Assembly (NCBI GenBank): GCA_964650355.1
Contig: CAZYTL010000002.1
Span: forward strand, 6,964 to 70,963
Direction of reading: 5' to 3'
DNA from: an uncultured Gammaproteobacteria bacterium
GTDB lineage: Bacteria > Patescibacteriota > Microgenomatia > CAYXHB01 > CAZYTL01
DNA: 64,000 bases
The notes under the pieces were generated by a model, which saw only the letters and a list, made by a program, of their open reading frames with translations, had not been told where the DNA came from and did not search any database. Position numbers and translations under genes: made by a program. The first letter of the stretch is position 1. Each line of letters starts with the position of its first letter. Below are positions 838 to 19,741 of the stretch, one piece after another.

Positions 838-1380
838 ATGAAAAGAGGGCGATACAAACGAGCTGAACAAAAAATAAAGCATCGGATTAATCAACAAATA
901 AGAGCTCCTGAGGTGCGACTGATAGGCCAAGATGGTAAACAGATCGGTCTGATGTCTGTGGCTGAGGCTTTGGCTAAGGCTAGAGAGGCCAATCTTGACT
1001 TGGTTGAGATTGCTCCTAAAGCCAAGCCTCCGGTAGTGAAGGTAATTGACTATAAGAAATTTCAATATTTGGAGTCTAAAAAGCTCAGCCAGCAAAAGAA
1101 ATCAGCCAAGAAGGGAGACTTGAAGGAAATCAGGCTCAGACCTTTTATGGCTGACGGAGATTATCAAGTGAAATTAAAACGAATTAAAGAGTTTTTGAAT
1201 GACGGGAATCAGGTGCGAGTTTCTGTGTATTTCAAAGGCAGAGAGCTCGCTCATAAATCCAAAGGGTATGAATTAGTTAGTCGGGCGTTAGCCGACTTAG
1301 GCGAAATTGCCAAGTTAGATCAACCCGCCAAGTTTGCAGGGAGAAATGTGATTGCCAATTTTTCTCCGAGTAAGAAATAG
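838..1380 (+). CDS. infC: Translation initiation factor IF-3
   Basis: 180 aa ORF with the IF-3 N- and C-domain signature (EVRLIGQDGKQIG..., LVEIAPKAKPPVVKVIDY). It lies in the conserved infC-rpmI-rplT arrangement. Confidence 0.9.
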   Translation: MKRGRYKRAEQKIKHRINQQIRAPEVRLIGQDGKQIGLMSVAEALAKAREANLDLVEIAPKAKPPVVKVIDYKKFQYLESKKLSQQKKSAKKGDLKEIRLRPFMADGDYQVKLKRIKEFLNDGNQVRVSVYFKGRELAHKSKGYELVSRALADLGEIAKLDQPAKFAGRNVIANFSPSKK

Positions 1381-1551
1381 ACAGAGGGAAAAACTGCCAG
1401 AGGAGTGCGGGGTTTTTCTTTACACAGACGGAATTTGGATGACTACGAATGTTAAGTCAACTTGCTATGGATTTGTGGGTAGTTTGTATATTATAATTGC
1501 AACCGTGGCTAAATATTAGCCGTTTCTATTTGTTTTATAATCTGTTGTTTT

Positions 1552-1746
1552 ATGAAGAAACTTAAAGTCCGTAAAGCTATTGCTAAAAGGTTTAAAATTA
1601 CTTCCACAGGAAAGGTGATTTCCCGGAGGGCTTTTCATAGCCATTTAAAGTTGAATAAATCCAAAAGCAGATTAAGAAGGATGAAAGTTCCTAATGAAAT
1701 TACCGGTAGGATGGCGACAAAGATCAAGAAAGCATTAGGAGCTTAG
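1552..1746 (+). CDS. rpmI: 50S ribosomal protein L35
   Basis: 64 aa highly basic protein ([22 protein letters not shown]...) located between infC and rplT. Confidence 0.9.
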
Positions 1747-1759
1747 TTAAAGACTAGAT

Positions 1760-2122
1760 ATGAGAGTAAAAAGTCAATCAGCTAAAAAGCACCGTAAGGT
1801 CCTCAAGATGGCCAAGGGCTACCGGATGTCCAGGAGCAAGCACTTCCGTACCGCCCAGGAGGCAGTATTGCACGCCGGTCAGCATGCCTATATTGGAAGA
1901 AAGCTAAGGAAGAGAGACAAGAGAAGAGAATGGATTACCCAAATCAATGCGGCTTTGACCCAGTTGGCCATGGAGAAAGAAGAAGCTAAATTGAAATACA
2001 GTGAATTTATTCATGGGTTGAAAAAGGCCAAGATTGAGGTTGACAGGAAAATTTTGGCCAAGTTGTCGATTGAAGATTTGGAAACGTTTAAGTTTATTGT
2101 GGAACAGGCGAAAGCGGCTTAA
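1760..2122 (+). CDS. rplT: 50S ribosomal protein L20
   Basis: 120 aa protein with a basic N-terminus (AKKHRKVLKMAKGYRMSRSKHFRTAQEAV) typical of L20. It is the third gene of the operon. Confidence 0.9.
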   Translation: MRVKSQSAKKHRKVLKMAKGYRMSRSKHFRTAQEAVLHAGQHAYIGRKLRKRDKRREWITQINAALTQLAMEKEEAKLKYSEFIHGLKKAKIEVDRKILAKLSIEDLETFKFIVEQAKAA

Positions 2123-2153
2123 TTTTAAGCCCCATCCAAACCTGTTCCAACCC

Positions 2154-2178
2154 AACCGCCAAAACAGGCGGTTTTTTG
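2154..2178 (+). terminator. Rho-independent terminator downstream of rplT
   Basis: A 7-bp stem (aaccgcc / ggcggtt) with a 6-nt loop, followed by TTTTTT. It lies between the rplT stop and the pheS start. Confidence 0.5.
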
Positions 2179-2185
2179 ATAGGAT

Positions 2186-3196
2186 ATGGATATGGATCAA
2201 CAATTGAATAATATAAAAAACGAGGCTCTGGCTCTGATATTGGAAGCGGAATCTCAGGAAGAGTTGGAGCAGGTAAGAGTGAGATACTTAAGCAAGAAAG
2301 GTAATTTGAATCAGGTATTTTCTGAATTAATGCGATCAGCAGAGGATAAAAAACAACTGGGACAGGTGTTTAATCAAACTAAACAGACTCTGTTGGAAGC
2401 ATTGGAAGACAAACAGGCTCAACTATCAACGATGCCTGATGATAGGGAATGGTTTGATGTGACCAAGATAACGGATGAGACAGCAATGGGAATGATGCAT
2501 CCGATTAATCTGATGATTAGAGAAATGAACCAGTTTTTCCGTTCCTATGGATTTTCGGTGATGGACGGACCGGAAATCGAAAGTGATGAGTACAATTTTC
2601 AGAGACTAAATCTGCCGCCTGATCACCCGGCCAGGGACTTGCAGGATACGCTTTATATTAAAGAACCGAATATTCTCTTGAGGACTCATACTTCTTCTGT
2701 GGAAACCAGAGTAGTGGCTAAATACAAACCACCTTTCCGGGTGGTGGTGCCCGGGAAGTCATACCGCTATGAAACCATGAACCCCTCAAATACAGTGATG
2801 TTTTTTCAATACCAGGGTTTCAATGTAGAAAGAAACATTTCGATGTCTAACTTGAAGTGGATTTTAGAAAAATTTGTGCATTATTTTTACGGTACTAAAC
2901 AGGAGATGAGGTTTCGTTGTAAGTACTATCCAGAAGTCGAACCCACAGCCGGATTGGATCTGGCTTGTTCGTTCTGTAACAAAAAGGGGTGTGCGGTGTG
3001 TAAATACCGCGGATGGTTGGAAATGATCGGTTGCGGCATGATGCATCCTAATATTATGAAAACTGCCGGCATAGATCCTCAAAAATGGTCGGGATTCGCT
3101 TGGGGTATGGGACTGGATCGCCTGGTGATGACGAAATTTAATATTCCTGACGTGCGAATGTTGACCAACGGATCGATTACCTATCCAAATACATAA
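2186..3196 (+). CDS. pheS: Phenylalanine--tRNA ligase alpha subunit
   Basis: 336 aa with a class II catalytic core (FRSYGFSVMDGPEIESDEYNF, motif 2/3 regions). It is followed directly by pheT. Confidence 0.9.
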   Translation: MDMDQQLNNIKNEALALILEAESQEELEQVRVRYLSKKGNLNQVFSELMRSAEDKKQLGQVFNQTKQTLLEALEDKQAQLSTMPDDREWFDVTKITDETAMGMMHPINLMIREMNQFFRSYGFSVMDGPEIESDEYNFQRLNLPPDHPARDLQDTLYIKEPNILLRTHTSSVETRVVAKYKPPFRVVVPGKSYRYETMNPSNTVMFFQYQGFNVERNISMSNLKWILEKFVHYFYGTKQEMRFRCKYYPEVEPTAGLDLACSFCNKKGCAVCKYRGWLEMIGCGMMHPNIMKTAGIDPQKWSGFAWGMGLDRLVMTKFNIPDVRMLTNGSITYPNT

Positions 3197-3203
3197 ATTT
3201 TAT

Positions 3204-5993
3204 ATGTTAGTCCCGCTTTCCTGGTTAAAACGGTATGTAGAAGTGCCCAAGAGGTTGTCTGAGTTGACGGATAAATTGACTTACGCCGGGCATATGCTGG
3301 ATAAGGTGCTGCAAGTTGATGGTGAGACAGTGATCGACTTGGAACTGAGAGGAAATCGTGAAGATTTATTCGGAATTCTAGGCATTGCCAGGGAAGTAGC
3401 AGCTTTGTTCGATGTGCCGATTAACCTCCCCCAGGAGCCTGACTTGAATAAAATCCCGCAATCGAATTCCGGCAAGAAGGTGAAAGTCGAAGTGCAGGAT
3501 ACTGAATTGATCAATCGGTTCTTTTCTATTGAAATTACTGATCTGAAAGTTGGTCCTTCGCCCAAATGGCTGGAGCAAATTTTAAAACAGATGAGCACTC
3601 CGGCTATCAATAACGTCGTGGATGTCACCAATTACATCATGTTTCTCACTGCCCAACCGTTACACGCTTTTGACAGAAATAAAATTAATCAGGGAAGATT
3701 AATTCTTCGTCAGGGCGACGGAAAGCTAAAGTTCACGACTTTCGAAGGCACCCAAGTGACAGCAACCAAACAAGATTTGATTGCTAGCGATCCGGAAAAA
3801 TGCTTGGGGTTATTAGGGGTAATTGGCGAGAAATACTCCGGAGTAGGCAAAGACACCACTGCGATTTTACTGGAAGGAGGTAATTATAATCAGCCGAGTG
3901 TAAGAAGATCTAGTCGAAGACATAAATTAAGAACAGACGCGGCCTTACGTCTAGAAAAAAATATTGATCCCCTGCTTCCACCATATGCAGTGAAATTGTG
4001 TACCGAGCTGATCTGTAAGCTGGCCCAGGGAAAGGTGGTGGCCGGAAGCGTGGGTGATTACGAGAAAAAAAAGCATCATAATCCGTGGAAAACGATTTTA
4101 TTCACTACTGATGAAGTCAAAAGATTGGGCAATATGCAAGTTTCCCAAGAGGAAGCAAGAAACATTTTCAAACGGTTGGATTTACCGTCCAAATTGATAG
4201 GTGCCAAAGTTGAAGTGCAAATTCCGTGGAGAAGGTCGGATATTGAGGGAGAAGCAGATCTGGTTGAGGAAGTTTTAAGGGTGATTGGCTACGAAAATAT
4301 CCCCAGCGAACCGATCAGCAACCCGGTACCCAAATCTATCGAACCACCGCATTTGCTGTTGGAAGAAAAGGTGAGAGATATCTTGGTCGGACAGGGATTT
4401 AAAGAGAATGTGAGCGATTCGTTCATCAGCCAAGATGACCAGGAATTGTTTTTCGGAAGTCAAAGTCAGGCAATTAAGATTGTTAATCCTACTTCACCGG
4501 AAACTGCTTTGCTGCGCACTTCCCTACTCCCCGCCCAAATAAAATTGGTACAGAAATTATTAAATTTGCACAAGCAAAATATTTCCTGGTTCGAGATCGG
4601 AAAGGTATATTGGGAGACAAAGCAGTCGGATTCTAAAAGTAACTATCAGGAAGAGATTCATTTGTCAGGAGCGATAGTGCTGGGAATAGACACGGAAAAA
4701 TTTTACGGTCGATCTCTGGCAAAAATGAGACGATTGTTAAATTATTTGGGGATTTGGGATTTGAAAGTTCAACCTCAAGCTGATCATTTGCTGATGAGCA
4801 AAGAAGGATCTACAAGTATTTATCAGCAGCAAAGATTGTTAGTCCAGATGGGTTTGTTGCGCACGGACGTAAAACAAGCACTGAATATCCAACCGGATGT
4901 TTTTTTGTTTGATGCTAAGATTGATGATTTATTAAAAGCAAAGACTGAACTGCCTAGAGTGCTAGAATCTGACTATCCTCCCGTCATTGAGGATCTGACG
5001 TTTATGCTGCCTTCGGAAACTTACATTCAACCGGTGATCGATGAGATTTATGGCGTGGATAAATTAATTAATAAAGTCGACTTAGTTGACAGTTATGAAG
5101 ATGCCCGGACCTTTAGGATTTATTACCAAAGCCGGAAAAAGAGTTTAAGCGATAACGAAGTGGAACCAATTCGGATGAGGATTGTGAAGGACTTGGAAGG
5201 GAAATTTAAAGCTAAGTTGAAAGGGGAAATTTTAACAGCTACAAGAAAAACAGAGCAGCAAACTACTCGCCCAAAATCAATAAAAGACAAGAAGGATATA
5301 AAAACGGAAGCAATATATTATTCCAATCCATATCAAAAAGAGCTTGAATGTAGTGTACTCGCTATAGAATCAAAAGGAAATTTGTTAAATGTTATTTTAG
5401 ATAAGACTGTTTTTTACCCACAAGGTGGCGGCCAGCCATCTGATCACGGAATGATTGGCAAAGCCAAAGTCAAACACGTATTAATGTCAAAAGGTCAAAT
5501 AATTCATCAAGTAAAAGGCGATCTAAACGTAGGAGATAAAGTAAAAGCGTTTTTAGACTGGGAACGTCGATATAAGTATATGAAAATTCACACGGCAGGT
5601 CATTTAATTCATGATGCTTTCATGACCATGGTCGAGGATTTAGTACCCATTAAGGCTGACCACGGTGACAATGCTTATCTTGAATATCAGGGCGAGTTAA
5701 AGGTCAATTTAAAATCTCAATTAGAAAGGTTAGTCGATCAATATATTAGTGATGATTTACCTGTAACGACAAAACAGACCACCTATGAAGATTTAGTGAA
5801 AGACTGTCCGTTTGTACCTCAAAACTTGCCTAAAGATAAACCACTTAGGGTGATTAAAATCAACAATTTCCCAACCATGCCAGATGGTGGTGTACATGTC
5901 AAAAGTACTCAAGAGATTGGGTCTGTGGTGATAGAAAGCATCTCCTCTTTTGACAACAAGACGGTGGTCAAATATCGTGTTTTAAATTCTTAG
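3204..5993 (+). CDS. pheT: Phenylalanine--tRNA ligase beta subunit with a C-terminal AlaX-M-like (tRNA_SAD) editing-domain extension
   Basis: 929 aa. The B3/B4 region (NNVVDVTNYIMFLTAQPLHAFD), the B5 region and the FDX-ACB-like region are recognisable. The last ~240 aa carry FYPQGGGQPSDHG, HTAGHLIH and DGGVHV motifs, as in AlaX/AlaRS/ThrRS editing domains. Confidence 0.85.
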   Translation: MLVPLSWLKRYVEVPKRLSELTDKLTYAGHMLDKVLQVDGETVIDLELRGNREDLFGILGIAREVAALFDVPINLPQEPDLNKIPQSNSGKKVKVEVQDTELINRFFSIEITDLKVGPSPKWLEQILKQMSTPAINNVVDVTNYIMFLTAQPLHAFDRNKINQGRLILRQGDGKLKFTTFEGTQVTATKQDLIASDPEKCLGLLGVIGEKYSGVGKDTTAILLEGGNYNQPSVRRSSRRHKLRTDAALRLEKNIDPLLPPYAVKLCTELICKLAQGKVVAGSVGDYEKKKHHNPWKTILFTTDEVKRLGNMQVSQEEARNIFKRLDLPSKLIGAKVEVQIPWRRSDIEGEADLVEEVLRVIGYENIPSEPISNPVPKSIEPPHLLLEEKVRDILVGQGFKENVSDSFISQDDQELFFGSQSQAIKIVNPTSPETALLRTSLLPAQIKLVQKLLNLHKQNISWFEIGKVYWETKQSDSKSNYQEEIHLSGAIVLGIDTEKFYGRSLAKMRRLLNYLGIWDLKVQPQADHLLMSKEGSTSIYQQQRLLVQMGLLRTDVKQALNIQPDVFLFDAKIDDLLKAKTELPRVLESDYPPVIEDLTFMLPSETYIQPVIDEIYGVDKLINKVDLVDSYEDARTFRIYYQSRKKSLSDNEVEPIRMRIVKDLEGKFKAKLKGEILTATRKTEQQTTRPKSIKDKKDIKTEAIYYSNPYQKELECSVLAIESKGNLLNVILDKTVFYPQGGGQPSDHGMIGKAKVKHVLMSKGQIIHQVKGDLNVGDKVKAFLDWERRYKYMKIHTAGHLIHDAFMTMVEDLVPIKADHGDNAYLEYQGELKVNLKSQLERLVDQYISDDLPVTTKQTTYEDLVKDCPFVPQNLPKDKPLRVIKINNFPTMPDGGVHVKSTQEIGSVVIESISSFDNKTVVKYRVLNS

Positions 5994-15727: not shown

Positions 15728-16210
15728 TCATGTCTGAGTGTTGGCCCTGACGGAGACGGTCTGGTATTGAGTAAGATGTTTGAGGACTATTTGATTTTTG
15801 ATGTTAACTCCCTTGGTTTGATCGCCGGCACCCATGCTCCAGGTTTCCAAAGCGAATGCATCTTTATCGATGAGAATCGGTAAGTCCAGTACGAGAGGAT
15901 TAATCCCGCCCGGGTGGTAACCAAACTTGTTTTCTAGAGTTTGTTTGTCTACAACGCTCCATTTACCCACTATTTGTTTAAGTTTTGACTGATCAATTCG
16001 ATCATCGCCTTTGAGGATCACTGCCTTGAATCCGTCTTTTGTAGAAATAACCAAGGTCTTTATAGCAGTGTGTGGATCATAATTATTATCAATTGAAGTG
16101 TCTCTGGTTCGGGCCGAAACTGCTATGTCGGTGAAGGTTATTTCTTCGAAGGGAATCCCTCGTTGTGTGAGATTTTGTTTGATGATATCAAACGTGACTT
16201 CAGCTCTCAT
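15728..16210 (-). CDS. YbaK/ProX-type aminoacyl-tRNA trans-editing deacylase
   Basis: 160 aa with the YbaK-domain signature (GYHPGGINPL) and overall length typical of Cys-tRNA(Pro)/Ala-tRNA(Pro) deacylases. Confidence 0.7.
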   Translation of the reverse strand: MRAEVTFDIIKQNLTQRGIPFEEITFTDIAVSARTRDTSIDNNYDPHTAIKTLVISTKDGFKAVILKGDDRIDQSKLKQIVGKWSVVDKQTLENKFGYHPGGINPLVLDLPILIDKDAFALETWSMGAGDQTKGVNIKNQIVLKHLTQYQTVSVRANTQT

Positions 16211-16329
16211 GATTAAGATGCTTCTTAAACTTTTTAGGTAAAAATTTTTGTTTGCCGACCATCACTAAGATAAATAGATATTACGCTGAACACGCGTCTA
16301 TAACGACATGAGGATACTCACTTTTGAGT

Positions 16330-17403
16330 TCAGTTTAGTGATTGTACATAATCTTTAAGTATCAAGCAATATGTTTCTAGGCTAGAAATATCTACCCATT
16401 CGTTGTCCGAGCCAATATTTCCGCCTTTTGGTCCAAATTCCACCCCTTCACAGTTAACTTTTATAAAATGTCTTACATCAGAAGATCCATGGGTCTTGTA
16501 AATGGTTACCTTATTATTGGTTATCTTTTTGGTTATTAGATGTAACTTCTTTAAATACTGATTATTTTTATCGACTGTGGTGGCAGGTTCGTCCACAACA
16601 ACTTTTACTTTGAAATCTTTGGGAACAAGTTCTTTAATTCTTTCTAAGATGGTATTGGCATCATTAGGAATAAAGCGAATGTCAAGCCACACAGTACAAT
16701 CATCCGGTATTTTATTAAACGAGTTGTTGTTGGTTTCAATTTTGCTTAGATTAACAGTAGTCTTCCATTGCTCTGAAATGGGTAAGGGAAAATTTTTTCT
16801 AAGAATGTTTAGAAATTTGTTCATTTTCCATAAAGCATTTTCTCCTCTCCAGAGGTATGCGCTGTGCGATGTCTTTCCGGAACAACTAACTTTTAAACAT
16901 AAAATTCCTTTAGCTTGATTAACAATGTTGAGATTCGTTGGTTCTCCCGTGATCACGAAATCTGCTCTAACTCCTTTATTTATCTGGTGTTTTGTGCCGT
17001 TAAATCCGCCAATTTGTTCGTCTGTTACCAGCTGTAAACCCAGAGGATAATTAACTTTATTAGCCATTTCCTTAAACACCATTATTAGGCAAGCGACACT
17101 GGCCTTCATATCTAGAGATCCAACACCAGATAATCTGTTCCTTTTTATGGTAGCTAGATATTGATGTTCCTTTCCTGGTATTACGTCAAGATGGCCATTC
17201 AGAATGAGCTTATACTTGTTTGAATTTATTTTTGGGCTATGGACCAAGACGCTTTTTATTCCTTGCTTTTCGAATCTTTCTACTTTAAATTCCCTTAGAT
17301 TTGATAGCGCAAGTTCCAGAATCTCATCCAATGCTGTTAAATTGTTAAAAGTAGATCTGATTGATATAAATTGTTTCGTTAAAGGTAAAATTTTGTCTAA
17401 CAT
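16330..17403 (-). CDS. M20 family metallohydrolase (ArgE/DapE/dipeptidase-like)
   Basis: 357 aa with the M20 metal-binding motifs GHLDVIP, GVGSLDMKAS and GEPT. The local GC content (about 35%) is clearly lower than that of the upstream gene. Confidence 0.8.
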   Translation of the reverse strand: MLDKILPLTKQFISIRSTFNNLTALDEILELALSNLREFKVERFEKQGIKSVLVHSPKINSNKYKLILNGHLDVIPGKEHQYLATIKRNRLSGVGSLDMKASVACLIMVFKEMANKVNYPLGLQLVTDEQIGGFNGTKHQINKGVRADFVITGEPTNLNIVNQAKGILCLKVSCSGKTSHSAYLWRGENALWKMNKFLNILRKNFPLPISEQWKTTVNLSKIETNNNSFNKIPDDCTVWLDIRFIPNDANTILERIKELVPKDFKVKVVVDEPATTVDKNNQYLKKLHLITKKITNNKVTIYKTHGSSDVRHFIKVNCEGVEFGPKGGNIGSDNEWVDISSLETYCLILKDYVQSLN

Positions 17404-17418
17404 AATTCTTGATTAATA

Positions 17419-19212
17419 TTACGATGAAATCGGAGCGGAAATCATTTCTCTTGTTCCATGAAGCCTTCCCATGTGAGCTTCTTCAGAATCCGATGGAACT
17501 AGGATTCTGATTCCACCCATAAATTCTGCACTGCCTCTCACTAAAGAGAAAAATGCTCTGTCCATAACCGCAAAAGTTGCTCCATTAGTACTATCATTTA
17601 CAACGAGAGATTCTATTTCGGGTTGAATTAGGTAAGGTCCCCTTAAGGCCAACATCTCCTTCAGCCATGATATATTACTACGATCGAAAAGATTCATGGT
17701 TTTTTGGCCATAACCGCCAAATACACCTTGCAATGGCTTGACTCGAAAGGCAGATAATTGTGACAACCCACGAGAATTCATAAAATCATTAAAGGTTTTG
17801 GTTACAGAAATTTTCTCGCCTTCAACAGACGCAACAACATCGTTGACGGCATCAACTCGAAAGCCCATAGCCATTAAGGGTAAAGCAACTTTGCTATCTT
17901 TTAAACGTTTTGGGTCGCCAATTGGCCAACCGGGATCATCGATATTTAAGGTGAGGGCATTTTCCCTTATTATTCTCCTCAAATTTGGATCTACCAATAA
18001 TGGATTTTCTACCCCTACTGTTGGATCTTTTAATTTAGATATCGGATCGGACGGACGAACATATAAAAGGCAATTGCATTGCCCACTATCTTGTTCTAAG
18101 TGTTTAAGAAATTCATCCGGCCCCCATAAGTCGTTAAAACCAGATATCTGAAAGACTTCTTCAGAGGTCAGATCCTGAACTCCTACCTTACCGAACTCAG
18201 TCTCCCGCATGTCTTCAAGCTTTTCTCTAGTCGGAGCAAGCAATACGATTGGCTTTTGATGTTGGGCTCTGATGATATCAAGTTGTTCTCTAAATCTAGT
18301 GCCAAGTAGTCCTCCACCGCCTAGTGTTTCTATCAACCCATACATAGCAATTGAAGGTTCGAATTCGAATATCCTGTCGCGTAAAGTGTTTATTACGTCT
18401 TCAGCACCAGGAGCGCCTGCTCCGGTGAGTAACTCTTGTGATAAACCAGCTATATCGACCTGAAAGAAAGGCTCTGTAATGTGACCACCGGTCATCCTTA
18501 CACAATGCTGGTATGCTAGTTTATGTCCTTCGTTATTTCCTGGAACAAATTGGGAAAAAACCCGTGCGTGCTCTTCAACCAACCTACTCAAACCGTCAAT
18601 GACTTTTGGCGGAAATCTAATTTGATAGTCTGGAGCATATTCGAAAGGTCCTAAGGTAGAAGGGATATCCTCTCGAGTGATGACGTTTTCAAGTCTTATT
18701 TTCTCTCCTGGTCGCGGTTGTTCTGAAGCGTAAGAGAACATTCTTGTTTCAACTACCTCCCGTATTGACATGGCACTCAGACCGTCACCGTTTAGTGCGT
18801 TTTGGCCTATTGCATGTAACCCAAGGTGAATAAAATCAGCATCTACTAGATGGCGAACGACCCTACCTCGGACCAGTGAATGATCCCAACCATGTCTTCG
18901 TACATCCTGAAAAAGGCTATCTTGAACATTCTGTGGTGTTATTCCTGCCAAATTTTTAGTCTGCGTGTCTTCAATTCCCTTGTCTGGGGGAAGTGGAATT
19001 AATGAAGGATCTTGCAATGCCTGGTTAACTCGCAAGTCACCTACCCGATTTAAGTCTTCCAGACAAGCCACATGAATTCCATTTTGTGCAGCCCACAACA
19101 CAATACCCTGAAACCTTGCTATCTGAACAAGTTTTTTCGGGGTAAGGCCAATCCCATTATTCTCTGCTATGAATGGGGATATTAAATGGTTGAATTCTAG
19201 TTGTTTTTTCAT
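17419..19212 (-). CDS. Uncharacterised 597-aa protein, possibly a ligase-like enzyme. It is the first gene after a T-box leader.
   Basis: Long intact ORF. It has a glycine-rich segment (ETLGGGGLLG) and a C-terminal FRVKPLQGVFGGYGQ loop that weakly resembles an ATP-grasp nucleotide-binding loop. It has no aaRS (HIGH/KMSKS or class II), Mur-ligase or adenylation-domain motifs. Confidence 0.35.
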   Translation of the reverse strand: MKKQLEFNHLISPFIAENNGIGLTPKKLVQIARFQGIVLWAAQNGIHVACLEDLNRVGDLRVNQALQDPSLIPLPPDKGIEDTQTKNLAGITPQNVQDSLFQDVRRHGWDHSLVRGRVVRHLVDADFIHLGLHAIGQNALNGDGLSAMSIREVVETRMFSYASEQPRPGEKIRLENVITREDIPSTLGPFEYAPDYQIRFPPKVIDGLSRLVEEHARVFSQFVPGNNEGHKLAYQHCVRMTGGHITEPFFQVDIAGLSQELLTGAGAPGAEDVINTLRDRIFEFEPSIAMYGLIETLGGGGLLGTRFREQLDIIRAQHQKPIVLLAPTREKLEDMRETEFGKVGVQDLTSEEVFQISGFNDLWGPDEFLKHLEQDSGQCNCLLYVRPSDPISKLKDPTVGVENPLLVDPNLRRIIRENALTLNIDDPGWPIGDPKRLKDSKVALPLMAMGFRVDAVNDVVASVEGEKISVTKTFNDFMNSRGLSQLSAFRVKPLQGVFGGYGQKTMNLFDRSNISWLKEMLALRGPYLIQPEIESLVVNDSTNGATFAVMDRAFFSLVRGSAEFMGGIRILVPSDSEEAHMGRLHGTREMISAPISS

Positions 19213-19317: not shown

Positions 19318-19363
19318 AAAAAAGCCCTTACGAATTCTCAAGATATTAAGAATTCGCAAGGGC
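19318..19363 (-). terminator. Intrinsic terminator hairpin of the T-box leader
   Basis: On the minus strand: gcccttgcgaattc - ttaatatcttga - gaattcgtaagggc, followed by UUUUUU. This is a 14-bp stem with one G-U wobble pair. Confidence 0.6.
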
Positions 19364-19741
19364 CATCTTTATAAGCTATCAGCGATAAGCTAACAGCTAA
19401 GGTAGGCGGTACCACCTTGCTTTACTAACTCAATAAAAAAACACCATGGTCACTGGTGTTTACCGTCATTGAGGTAGTCTCAATTATTCACGTACTTGAC
19501 GGTGTGATTTGCCGTTGGGCAATTCACTTTGCAGTGATACGTTAGCGCTATGACGGGCGCGCCCGTTCTCGATCTGTGGTCGGGAAGGCTCAACAGGGTA
19601 ATTCATTTTTTCTTGTGCGTCAGGTCTTGCACCAATCGCCTGATCTCTGGTGTCACCAAGAGAAAACTACTTCACTGTTTCACAGCCTTTATTAATTTTT
19701 CAGTATTGAGGATTATATAATAGATACAAAGCAAAAATCAA
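19318..19741 (-). promoter_or_regulatory. T-box riboswitch leader (promoter, stem I region, T-box core, antiterminator/terminator) upstream of the 17419..19212 operon
   Basis: The minus strand has a promoter TTGATT-N18-TATAAT (plus coordinates 19736-19741 and 19712-19717). The T-box core AAGGUGGUACCGCC (plus 19401-19423) matches the AGGGUGGNACCGCG consensus. Its flanks AAGG...GCC can pair with GGC-CCUU, which is the 5' arm of the terminator, giving the classical mutually exclusive antiterminator and terminator. Confidence 0.55.

Follow-up and report, generated by a model that had tools for sequence, protein, structure and literature searches.

A tyrosine-linked T-box operon with a putative ATP-grasp ligase, an M20 hydrolase and a YbaK-like deacylase in a probable member of the Patescibacteria

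What is the role of an unclassified protein whose gene lies behind a T-box leader, together with genes for a metallohydrolase and an aminoacyl-tRNA deacylase? These genes are on the minus strand of a 64,000-nucleotide stretch of contig CAZYTL010000002.1 (the window), and the operon's host is probably a member of the Patescibacteria (the candidate phyla radiation, or CPR). A preliminary description, made from the sequence alone, had noted three co-directional genes behind the leader and had suggested a pathway linked to an amino acid or to aminoacyl-tRNA. We find the genes arranged as described, and the amino acid appears to be tyrosine: orthologous operons include tRNA-Tyr, tyrosyl-tRNA synthetase (TyrRS), or D-tyrosyl-tRNA deacylase (DTD). 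We propose, with a probability of about one half, that this is a tyrosine-starvation operon, which combines amide ligase and hydrolase chemistry on tyrosine or an aromatic conjugate with the editing of tRNA-Tyr.

Gene 1 (19212-17419, minus strand) is an open reading frame (ORF) for a protein of 597 amino acids. Gene 2 (17403-16330, minus strand) encodes a metallo-amidohydrolase of the M20 family (357 amino acids; ArgE/DapE-like by its Pfam and NCBIfam matches). Gene 3 (16210-15728, minus strand) encodes an aminoacyl-tRNA deacylase (160 amino acids) with the YbaK/ProX fold, from its match to Pfam's tRNA_edit and its AlphaFold2 model; we assign it to a TyrRS-associated subfamily. The intergenic gaps are 15 nt (genes 1 and 2) and 119 nt (genes 2 and 3). 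For comparison, we sampled 44 loci from genomes, 50 loci from metagenomes, and the contigs of the closest proteins. (Loci have names like L054 and protein clusters have names like P0183.)

The T-box leader and its specifier

The leader (19692-19317, minus strand; Rfam RF00230) has a Stem I with a specifier loop, a Stem II region, a Stem III, a T-box sequence with an antiterminator, and an intrinsic terminator. A local Rfam scan matched RF00230 at 19692-19396 (69.8 bits, E = 5.7e-15) across the full model (positions 1-219). A window-wide scan at gathering thresholds gave no match; the T-box is not reported there, as 69.8 bits is below the gathering score of 93. The score is low because the leader has large insertions.

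On its own, the specifier loop GAAUUACC is ambiguous, as AUU, UUA, or UAC could be read from it. An identical loop is found in a leader from Dojkabacteria (L003; 99.4 bits, which is above the gathering threshold), and downstream of that leader are tRNA-Tyr(GUA) and then a protein that NCBIfam identifies as tyrosine--tRNA ligase (401.8 bits). In the leader alignment, a Shapirobacteria leader (L112), which lies upstream of a fusion of a YbaK-like domain to TyrRS, has UAC at the aligned position. Because of these two leaders, we read the window's specifier as UAC (19598-19600, minus strand), a tyrosine codon. UAC occurs at the same place in three intact related leaders, each accompanied by tRNA-Tyr or TyrRS. 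The preliminary description had proposed that the specifier would name the cognate amino acid, and the answer is tyrosine. Other homologous leaders, with lower scores, precede the orthologous operons of L054 (46 bits) and L056 (37 bits).

Five related leaders keep both the Stem I specifier loop (UGAAGUA ... GAAUUACC) and the T-box core (GCAAGGUGGUACCGCC). As read from the sequence, the core GCAAGG-UGGUACC(-GCC) is at 19408-19420 (minus strand), and it is a conserved block of the leader alignment. Its UGGU bulge is predicted to pair with the ACCA 3' end of the tRNA. Within the bulge, the U that would face the discriminator base is compatible with A73, and ...UGGA is the end of the tRNA-Tyr in L003. 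The terminator hairpin and its U-tract are at 19323-19364 (minus strand; 19 pairs, 7 of them G-C, from the terminator scan and ViennaRNA folds). This is the sole strong site in that scan and it is upstream of gene 1; no terminator-like sites were found between the three genes. The sequence CCUUGC (19361-19356) is both the 5' arm of the terminator and the 3' arm of the antiterminator (GCAAGG...CCUUGC, -23.9 kcal/mol by ViennaRNA), so the two structures are mutually exclusive. The Rfam match, the terminator/antiterminator pair, and the conserved leaders support the T-box of the preliminary description as genuine and as directly controlling the three genes.

Just upstream of the T-box sequence, at the position of Stem III, is a hairpin and then a run of 7 U (19439-19461, minus strand), with equivalents in L054, L055, L056, and L112; RNA polymerase may pause there, or attenuation may have a second point there. 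Upstream of the leader is a promoter-like site, TTGATT-18 nt-TATAAT (19741-19712, minus strand), which matches at 10 of 12 positions and is the best hit in a consensus scan. The number of sites in that scan equals the expectation from shuffled sequence, and this site is a consensus match only.

The window's leader resembles the tyrS-type T-box leaders of Bacillus subtilis (RF00230, UAC specifier) in its Stem I specifier loop (AGUA...GAA), its UAC, its T-box sequence with a UGGN bulge, and its competing antiterminator and terminator. Unlike those leaders, it scores below the gathering threshold and has a C instead of a purine after the codon. Where those leaders control tyrS, it controls genes for a ligase, a hydrolase, and an editing factor, which replace tyrS or come ahead of it. 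Its host also differs, being probably from the Patescibacteria.

Tyrosine-related genes are found beside the closest relatives of the window's ligase (percentages are amino acid identities to that ligase). L054 (61%) has a T-box, tRNA-Tyr, the ligase, the M20 hydrolase, and DTD (Tyr_Deacylase, E = 6e-16). L055 (70%) has a T-box, the ligase, the M20 hydrolase, and a YbaK-like remnant of 57 amino acids (E = 8e-10). The ORF for this remnant (L055:3169-3342) is 53% identical to residues 6-41 of the gene 3 protein and then reaches a stop, which could be due to decay of the gene or to an error in the assembly. L056-59 (52%) have a T-box, the ligase, the M20 hydrolase, and an ORF starting ...LYQGFDPSMPSLHLGNYV, which is the N-terminus of TyrRS (a weak Pfam match, at the contig's end). 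L003 (51%) has a T-box, tRNA-Tyr, the YbaK::TyrRS fusion, the ligase, and the M20 hydrolase. The Shapirobacteria operon (L112:3700-6572) has a T-box with a reduced Stem I, an M20 protein that is only 24% identical to the window's, and, 16 nt on, the YbaK::TyrRS fusion; no ATP-grasp gene was found in this operon.

The T-box core motif is missing upstream of most members of the ligase family, so T-box control is not a general property of the ligase/M20 pair. Two other loci have T-box-like leaders in which Stem I is strongly reduced (L096:5051-5935 and L007:3890-4140). In L096, one hairpin loop reads G-UAU-A-GU. The L007 leader is behind a TrpR-like gene and before a 106-amino-acid ORF, and its UGGC bulge would pair with a discriminator G.

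The ligase family and its M20 partner

The gene 1 protein and nine relatives have no match in Pfam, NCBIfam, or PADLOC. Searches of the PDB's sequences, with the single protein (phmmer) or with the family's profile, found no relative, and a comparison of the family's profile to E. coli YjfC by hhalign was negative. The preliminary description had called the protein ligase-like but without an assignable motif, and had proposed a structure comparison with an AlphaFold model. When Foldseek compares this model to the PDB, ATP-grasp-fold enzymes top the list: first a putative glutathionylspermidine synthase (3n6x, E = 5.5e-7) and human glutathione synthetase (E = 1.5e-5), next E. coli YjfC (annotated as a peptide--spermidine ligase, E = 2.9e-4), and further down Cp1B, then PurK, Ddl, DcsG, RimK, and GshB. 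Foldseek's probability is 0.99-1.0 for 3n6x, 8fbz, and 7uk6, and about 20 more ATP-grasp enzymes are in the top 50. Among these, Cp1B (9cjn) is an ATP-grasp enzyme of E-64 biosynthesis, where it couples epoxysuccinate with an L-amino acid (PMC12568646).

The ATP-grasp-fold core of the model spans residues ~166-597 (17419-18717, minus strand; pLDDT mostly 85-98). The family's motif RAKPxxGVYGGYG resembles the lysine and flexible glycine loop of ATP-grasp enzymes. In the window this is KPLQGVFGGYG (K492-G502; 17739-17707, minus strand), which the preliminary description had already singled out as ATP-grasp-like. Invariant or nearly invariant residues, some of which may correspond to the phosphate-binding lysine, the glycine-rich loop, and the Mg-binding residues of ATP-grasp enzymes, are K492, G499/Y501/G502, Q530-x-E532, D551-R552, R569, and R583-x-H585. 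From the modelled fold, we propose that gene 1 encodes a putative ATP-grasp-fold carboxylate-amine ligase. It belongs to no characterized family, and its small unclassified family would be a new one within a known fold.

This family appears from homology searches to be small and closed. A word-indexed search found only 18 relatives, and a profile search of 1.84 billion protein representatives found 187 clusters (177 at E <= 1e-10). A metagenome scan with the single gene 1 protein as the query found no match. Nearly all of the source metagenome-assembled genomes (MAGs) are labelled as Patescibacteria, with a few labelled otherwise (Gammaproteobacteria, Methanocellales). Across the loci, identity to the window's ligase is only about 35-40%. 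Conservation lies in the C-terminal ~430 residues; the N-terminal extensions range from none to ~530 amino acids and are unrelated between lineages. The window's extension (residues 1 to ~165; 18718-19212, minus strand; pLDDT mostly below 55) is lineage-specific and aligns only with P0002 and P0004.

The window's family shares its overall fold with the GspS, YjfC, eukaryotic glutathione-synthetase, and CP_ATPgrasp_2 ligases (3n6x, 8fbz, 7uk6) and with Cp1B. It also has a lysine followed by a glycine-rich loop that looks like theirs, and by analogy the chemistry should be the same (ATP + carboxylate + amine -> amide). Unlike those ligases, to which it has no detectable sequence similarity, the family comes from MAGs that nearly all have the Patescibacteria label, has variable N-terminal extensions, and is obligately paired with an M20 enzyme.

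In ATP-grasp chemistry, ATP turns the carboxylate into an activated acyl-phosphate, and no tRNA is needed. This matters for an idea from the preliminary description, that the ligase-like protein performs tRNA-dependent amide-bond formation or proofreading on aminoacyl-tRNA. The pair's co-location with the T-box, tRNA-Tyr, TyrRS, and two kinds of aminoacyl-tRNA deacylase would fit this idea. However, besides the chemistry of ATP-grasp enzymes, Foldseek gave no match to the Fem/GNAT, cyclodipeptide synthase, or aminoacyl-tRNA synthetase folds; most loci have no tRNA-related neighbor; and the window's N-terminal extension is not basic (its isoelectric point is 6.4) and the core is acidic. We also considered that the extension might bind RNA, and dropped this because it is not basic. 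We think that tRNA-dependent ligation is very improbable.

Gene 2 has both the catalytic and the dimerization domains of an M20 metallohydrolase (Peptidase_M20, PF01546, 80.5 bits, E = 2e-22; M20_dimer, PF07687, 58.3 bits, E = 8e-16), in agreement with the preliminary description. NCBIfam places it among the ArgE/DapE deacylases, below every equivalog cut-off (the best is TIGR01910, with 159.8 bits against a cut-off of 217.6). We rejected DapE or ArgE proper, as all of the equivalog scores are far below the cut-offs. Among the residues that may make up the metal-ligand set of M20 enzymes (His, Asp, Glu, Glu, and His, plus a catalytic Glu), H71, D98, E129, E154, and H312 are invariant in 42 M20 orthologues.

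The ligase and the M20 hydrolase are the only conserved neighbors. Of 45 informative non-redundant loci, 41 have an M20 orthologue on the same strand, at most 400 nt behind the ligase, and the second sample, of 50 metagenome loci, has the same pairing. These orthologues match the window's M20 protein at E = 1e-100 to 1e-150, with a median identity of 55%. So co-occurrence across relatives, another check from the preliminary description, identifies a conserved pair, with tyrosine genes beside it in the closest relatives. The three-gene set that was described stands in part: the ligase and the M20 hydrolase are a conserved module and the YbaK gene is outside it, joining the pair only in the subclade with the T-box. 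Neither finding that the preliminary description had named as fatal to its reading was obtained: the ligase falls in no characterized family, and it has the M20 gene as its neighbor in 41 of 45 loci.

The preliminary description had also noted a step in GC content between genes 1 and 2 (about 45% versus about 35%), and took it to suggest that the M20 gene had originated separately or had been acquired recently. The step is real, with measured values of 42.4% and 34.8%. However, GC content at third codon positions (GC3) is equal (0.334 for the ligase gene, 0.321 for the M20 gene), and other genes in the window are as low as 32.5% GC. Furthermore, the pairing is conserved across lineages, and when the two genes were compared at 41 loci from many lineages, the M20 gene had the higher AT content at 39 of them, with a mean difference of 7.8 points. 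Because the step is so widely shared and GC3 in the window is equal, we view it as a trait of the family; recent acquisition of the M20 gene beside the ligase gene, to which the difference in total GC had pointed, is extremely improbable. In genomes with higher GC (L022, L039, L033, and others), the ligase gene's GC3 is as high as 0.905 (L022), with 0.26-0.46 for the adjacent M20 genes, so that codon usage differs sharply between two neighbors in one operon.

Several other genes are found near the pair in some lineages. Second M20 paralogues are present in L011, L015, L025, L039, L043, and L046. Genes similar to class-I glutamine amidotransferases (GATase) or to peptidase C26 are behind the M20 gene and on the same strand in L022 (12528-16882, three paralogues) and L039 (13224-13931). 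Class-II amidotransferase neighbors were set aside, as they are from a single lineage and on the opposite strand. At least two lineages have acylphosphatase genes beside the pair (L019:7194-7553, L077:5197-5553, L105:2418-2774, L010:11940-12209, and L102:9943-10209), which is curious because ATP-grasp enzymes work via acyl-phosphate intermediates.

Genes related to aromatic amino acids are also found beside the pair. Prephenate dehydratase is the most common Pfam family among the flanking ORFs (5 of 136), and in L015 and L025 it is within the operon, followed by the second M20 gene. TrpR-like YerC/YecD genes adjoin the pair in 7 loci. In L096, the order is TrpRS, T-box, a gene similar to low-molecular-weight protein tyrosine phosphatases, and the ligase. 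In L002, from Levybacteria, pheS and pheT are behind the pair, which is inserted between rplT and pheS of an infC-rplT-pheS-pheT cluster. The window has a cluster of the same four genes (838-5993, plus strand), about 10 kb from the operon.

We also considered that the pair might have nothing to do with tyrosine, and might instead perform peptide tagging and untagging or cell-wall peptide chemistry, riding on a tyrS T-box operon in just one subclade. The T-box and an aminoacyl-tRNA synthetase neighbor are absent from most loci; the long and variable N-terminal extensions suggest macromolecular partners; the fold's relatives include ligases that modify peptides (RimK and the CP-ATP-grasp enzymes); and acylphosphatase and GATase1/C26 genes adjoin the pair in some lineages. 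However, this explanation fits poorly with the T-box being directly before the ligase in the window, L055, and L056, and with TyrRS being behind the pair in L056. It also does not account for the independent links to aromatic amino acids in unrelated lineages (prephenate dehydratase, TrpR-like genes, PheRS, and TrpRS), or for a different M20 gene being in a tyrosine T-box operon in L112. We consider a role unrelated to tyrosine to be unlikely.

The YbaK-like deacylase

The gene 3 protein matches tRNA_edit (PF04073, 60.2 bits, E = 3e-16). Its AlphaFold2 model (pLDDT 93) is similar to the structures of YbaK, ProX, and the INS domain of ProRS (1dbx, 2z0k, 2dxa, and 1wdv; TM scores of 0.76-0.81), at no more than 23% identity. 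Both results agree with the preliminary description's free-standing deacylase of the YbaK/ProX fold. In the protein's subfamily, K51 and the G101..P105 loop are invariant. YbaK proper, the Cys-tRNA-Pro deacylase, was rejected: the score for TIGR00011 is 47.5 against a cut-off of 153.25, and the context is TyrRS, not ProRS.

The gene 3 protein is similar to the N-terminal domain of a TyrRS from Dojkabacteria (E = 1e-46). Among the 120 best TyrRS clusters, about 20 are such tRNA_edit::TyrRS fusions (Dojkabacteria and Shapirobacteria). Examples are L003:1447-3057 and clusters P0183-P0186, P0203, P0216, P0250, and others; the TyrRS is of the archaeal type and the YbaK-like domain is N-terminal. 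One cluster, P0198 (594 amino acids), has a PheRS-type B3_4 editing domain instead of tRNA_edit, and several TyrRS clusters have a C-terminal tRNA_bind domain. Elsewhere, a free-standing homologue is the last gene of a cluster for aromatic biosynthesis (DAHP synthase, chorismate mutase, aminotransferase, and PDH-PDT), and in L049 a homologue is in an operon with a gene from the Asp/Glu racemase family. In L052 (885-3443), a homologue from the subfamily is behind genes for 428- and 260-amino-acid proteins that have no Pfam match; the 428-amino-acid protein was considered as a member of the ligase family and is not one.

From these associations, we infer that the gene 3 protein is a tRNA-Tyr-directed editing factor. 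By the usual account, TyrRS has no editing domain, and it is the standard textbook case of such a synthetase. Like the trans-editing factors YbaK and ProXp, gene 3's protein is free-standing, with a YbaK-like fold, a conserved lysine, and a GxxxP loop. Unlike them, it is linked to TyrRS and tRNA-Tyr, not to ProRS, and it is at most 23% identical to the solved members. Its position in the operon is held by DTD in L054.

Another explanation is quality control or detoxification. The ligase would conjugate D-tyrosine or a toxic analogue, which keeps TyrRS from using it; an L-specific M20 hydrolase would rescue L-tyrosine that had been conjugated by mistake; and DTD or the YbaK-like protein would clear whatever was nonetheless loaded onto tRNA-Tyr. 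The enantioselectivity of TyrRS is weak, and in yeast a D-amino-acid N-acetyltransferase works alongside DTD. Besides DTD in the L054 operon, this explanation fits the operon of a YbaK homologue with a racemase-family gene in L049 and the filling of the deacylase slot by two unrelated folds. However, nothing points to D-stereospecificity, and the cycle would waste ATP. Also, the neighboring prephenate dehydratase, pheST, and TrpR-like genes suit supply or homeostasis better, and another YbaK homologue is in an aromatic biosynthesis cluster. We consider detoxification to be rather improbable.

Proposed role of the operon

We return to the proposal of a tyrosine-starvation operon. When tyrosine is scarce, uncharged tRNA-Tyr would bind to the UAC specifier and the UGGU bulge and stabilize the antiterminator, which would lead to transcriptional read-through. 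The ligase would use ATP to convert a carboxylate into an acyl-phosphate intermediate and would then join it, as an amide, to the amino group of tyrosine, of a tyrosine precursor, or of a non-usable form. The M20 hydrolase would cleave the N-acyl or peptidyl bond to release free L-tyrosine. Together, the ligase and the hydrolase would follow the logic of protection, conversion, and deprotection, or of conjugate salvage, and would raise the pool of L-tyrosine. The YbaK-like protein would hydrolyze tRNA-Tyr that TyrRS had mis-acylated (with D-tyrosine, phenylalanine, or a tyrosine analogue, for example) when L-tyrosine was scarce. Candidate chemistries for the pair are N-acyl protection with conversion, the handling of D-tyrosine (D to L) or of analogues, and the salvage of conjugates.

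LysX/LysK (and ArgX) of the LysW amino-group-carrier pathway offer a parallel in logic. There too, the gene for an ATP-grasp ligase is found with that for an M20 deacylase, and the enzymes serve amino acid metabolism by protecting, converting, and deprotecting. Unlike LysX, a RimK-type ATP-grasp enzyme that Pfam recognizes, gene 1's protein has no RimK match in Pfam, and the window's operon would concern tyrosine or an aromatic amino acid instead of lysine or arginine. In a Pfam survey of 229 flanking ORFs, which had no dedicated search for LysW, neither LysW nor LysZ/Y/J was among the 25 commonest families. The M20 step also resembles the last step (ArgE/DapE-like) of the N-succinyl-amino-acid racemase (NSAR) pathway, with its succinyltransferase, NSAR, and M20 L-desuccinylase, and of YxeL/K/P-type salvage by acylation, conversion, and deacylation. 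In these routes, the M20 enzyme frees the L-amino acid from an N-acyl intermediate. Unlike them, acylation in the window would depend on an ATP-grasp enzyme and not on CoA, and no racemase or oxygenase is conserved near the window-type pair.

Several observations weigh against our proposal. About 35 of the 41 loci have neither a T-box nor an aminoacyl-tRNA synthetase gene beside the pair, and the flanking ORFs include genes for the non-aromatic class-II D/K/N synthetases (tRNA-synt_2, twice). The evidence for direct regulation by tyrosine comes from one subclade only (the window, L003, and L054-L056), whose operons may all go back to one ancestral arrangement. The assignment of gene 1 to the ATP-grasp enzymes is at the level of the fold only, with TM scores of 0.3-0.44, a large root-mean-square deviation, and no relative in the PDB by sequence profile. 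Residue 130 of the M20 protein (17014-17016, minus strand) is Q in the window, as it is in L054 and L027. The other 39 of 42 orthologues have E there, the second Glu of the DEE motif, which is probably a metal ligand if DapE and CPG2 are a guide. Finally, inducing a ligase and a hydrolase at the same time would seem futile unless the two differ in specificity or a conversion step comes between them, and among the surveyed loci, no racemase or modifying enzyme is conserved beside the pair.

Our literature searches (on editing domains in TyrRS, on T-boxes in CPR bacteria, and on the combination of ATP-grasp, M20, and T-box) found nothing relevant. Together, the evidence points to an undescribed module for tyrosine supply and proofreading in candidate-phyla bacteria. 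More tentatively, and with less than even probability, the operon could represent both a previously unknown ATP-dependent route for the salvage or conversion of tyrosine or aromatic amino acids in candidate phyla, with a new ligase family and a dedicated M20 deacylase, induced by uncharged tRNA-Tyr, and the first editing system for TyrRS, in which the YbaK-like domain works as a separate protein (in trans) in the window and as part of the synthetase (in cis) in Dojkabacteria and Shapirobacteria.

Patescibacteria have a minimal metabolism, and their means of securing amino acids are largely unknown. A ligase/hydrolase pair that is wired to a tyrosine T-box, tRNA-Tyr, TyrRS, and aromatic genes offers a testable entry into how they are supplied with amino acids. 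The ligase core is a candidate new family for Pfam and NCBIfam. And a YbaK-like domain that repeatedly occurs in fusions with TyrRS, is free-standing in a tyrosine T-box operon, and can exchange positions with DTD would widen the known range of aminoacyl-tRNA proofreading.

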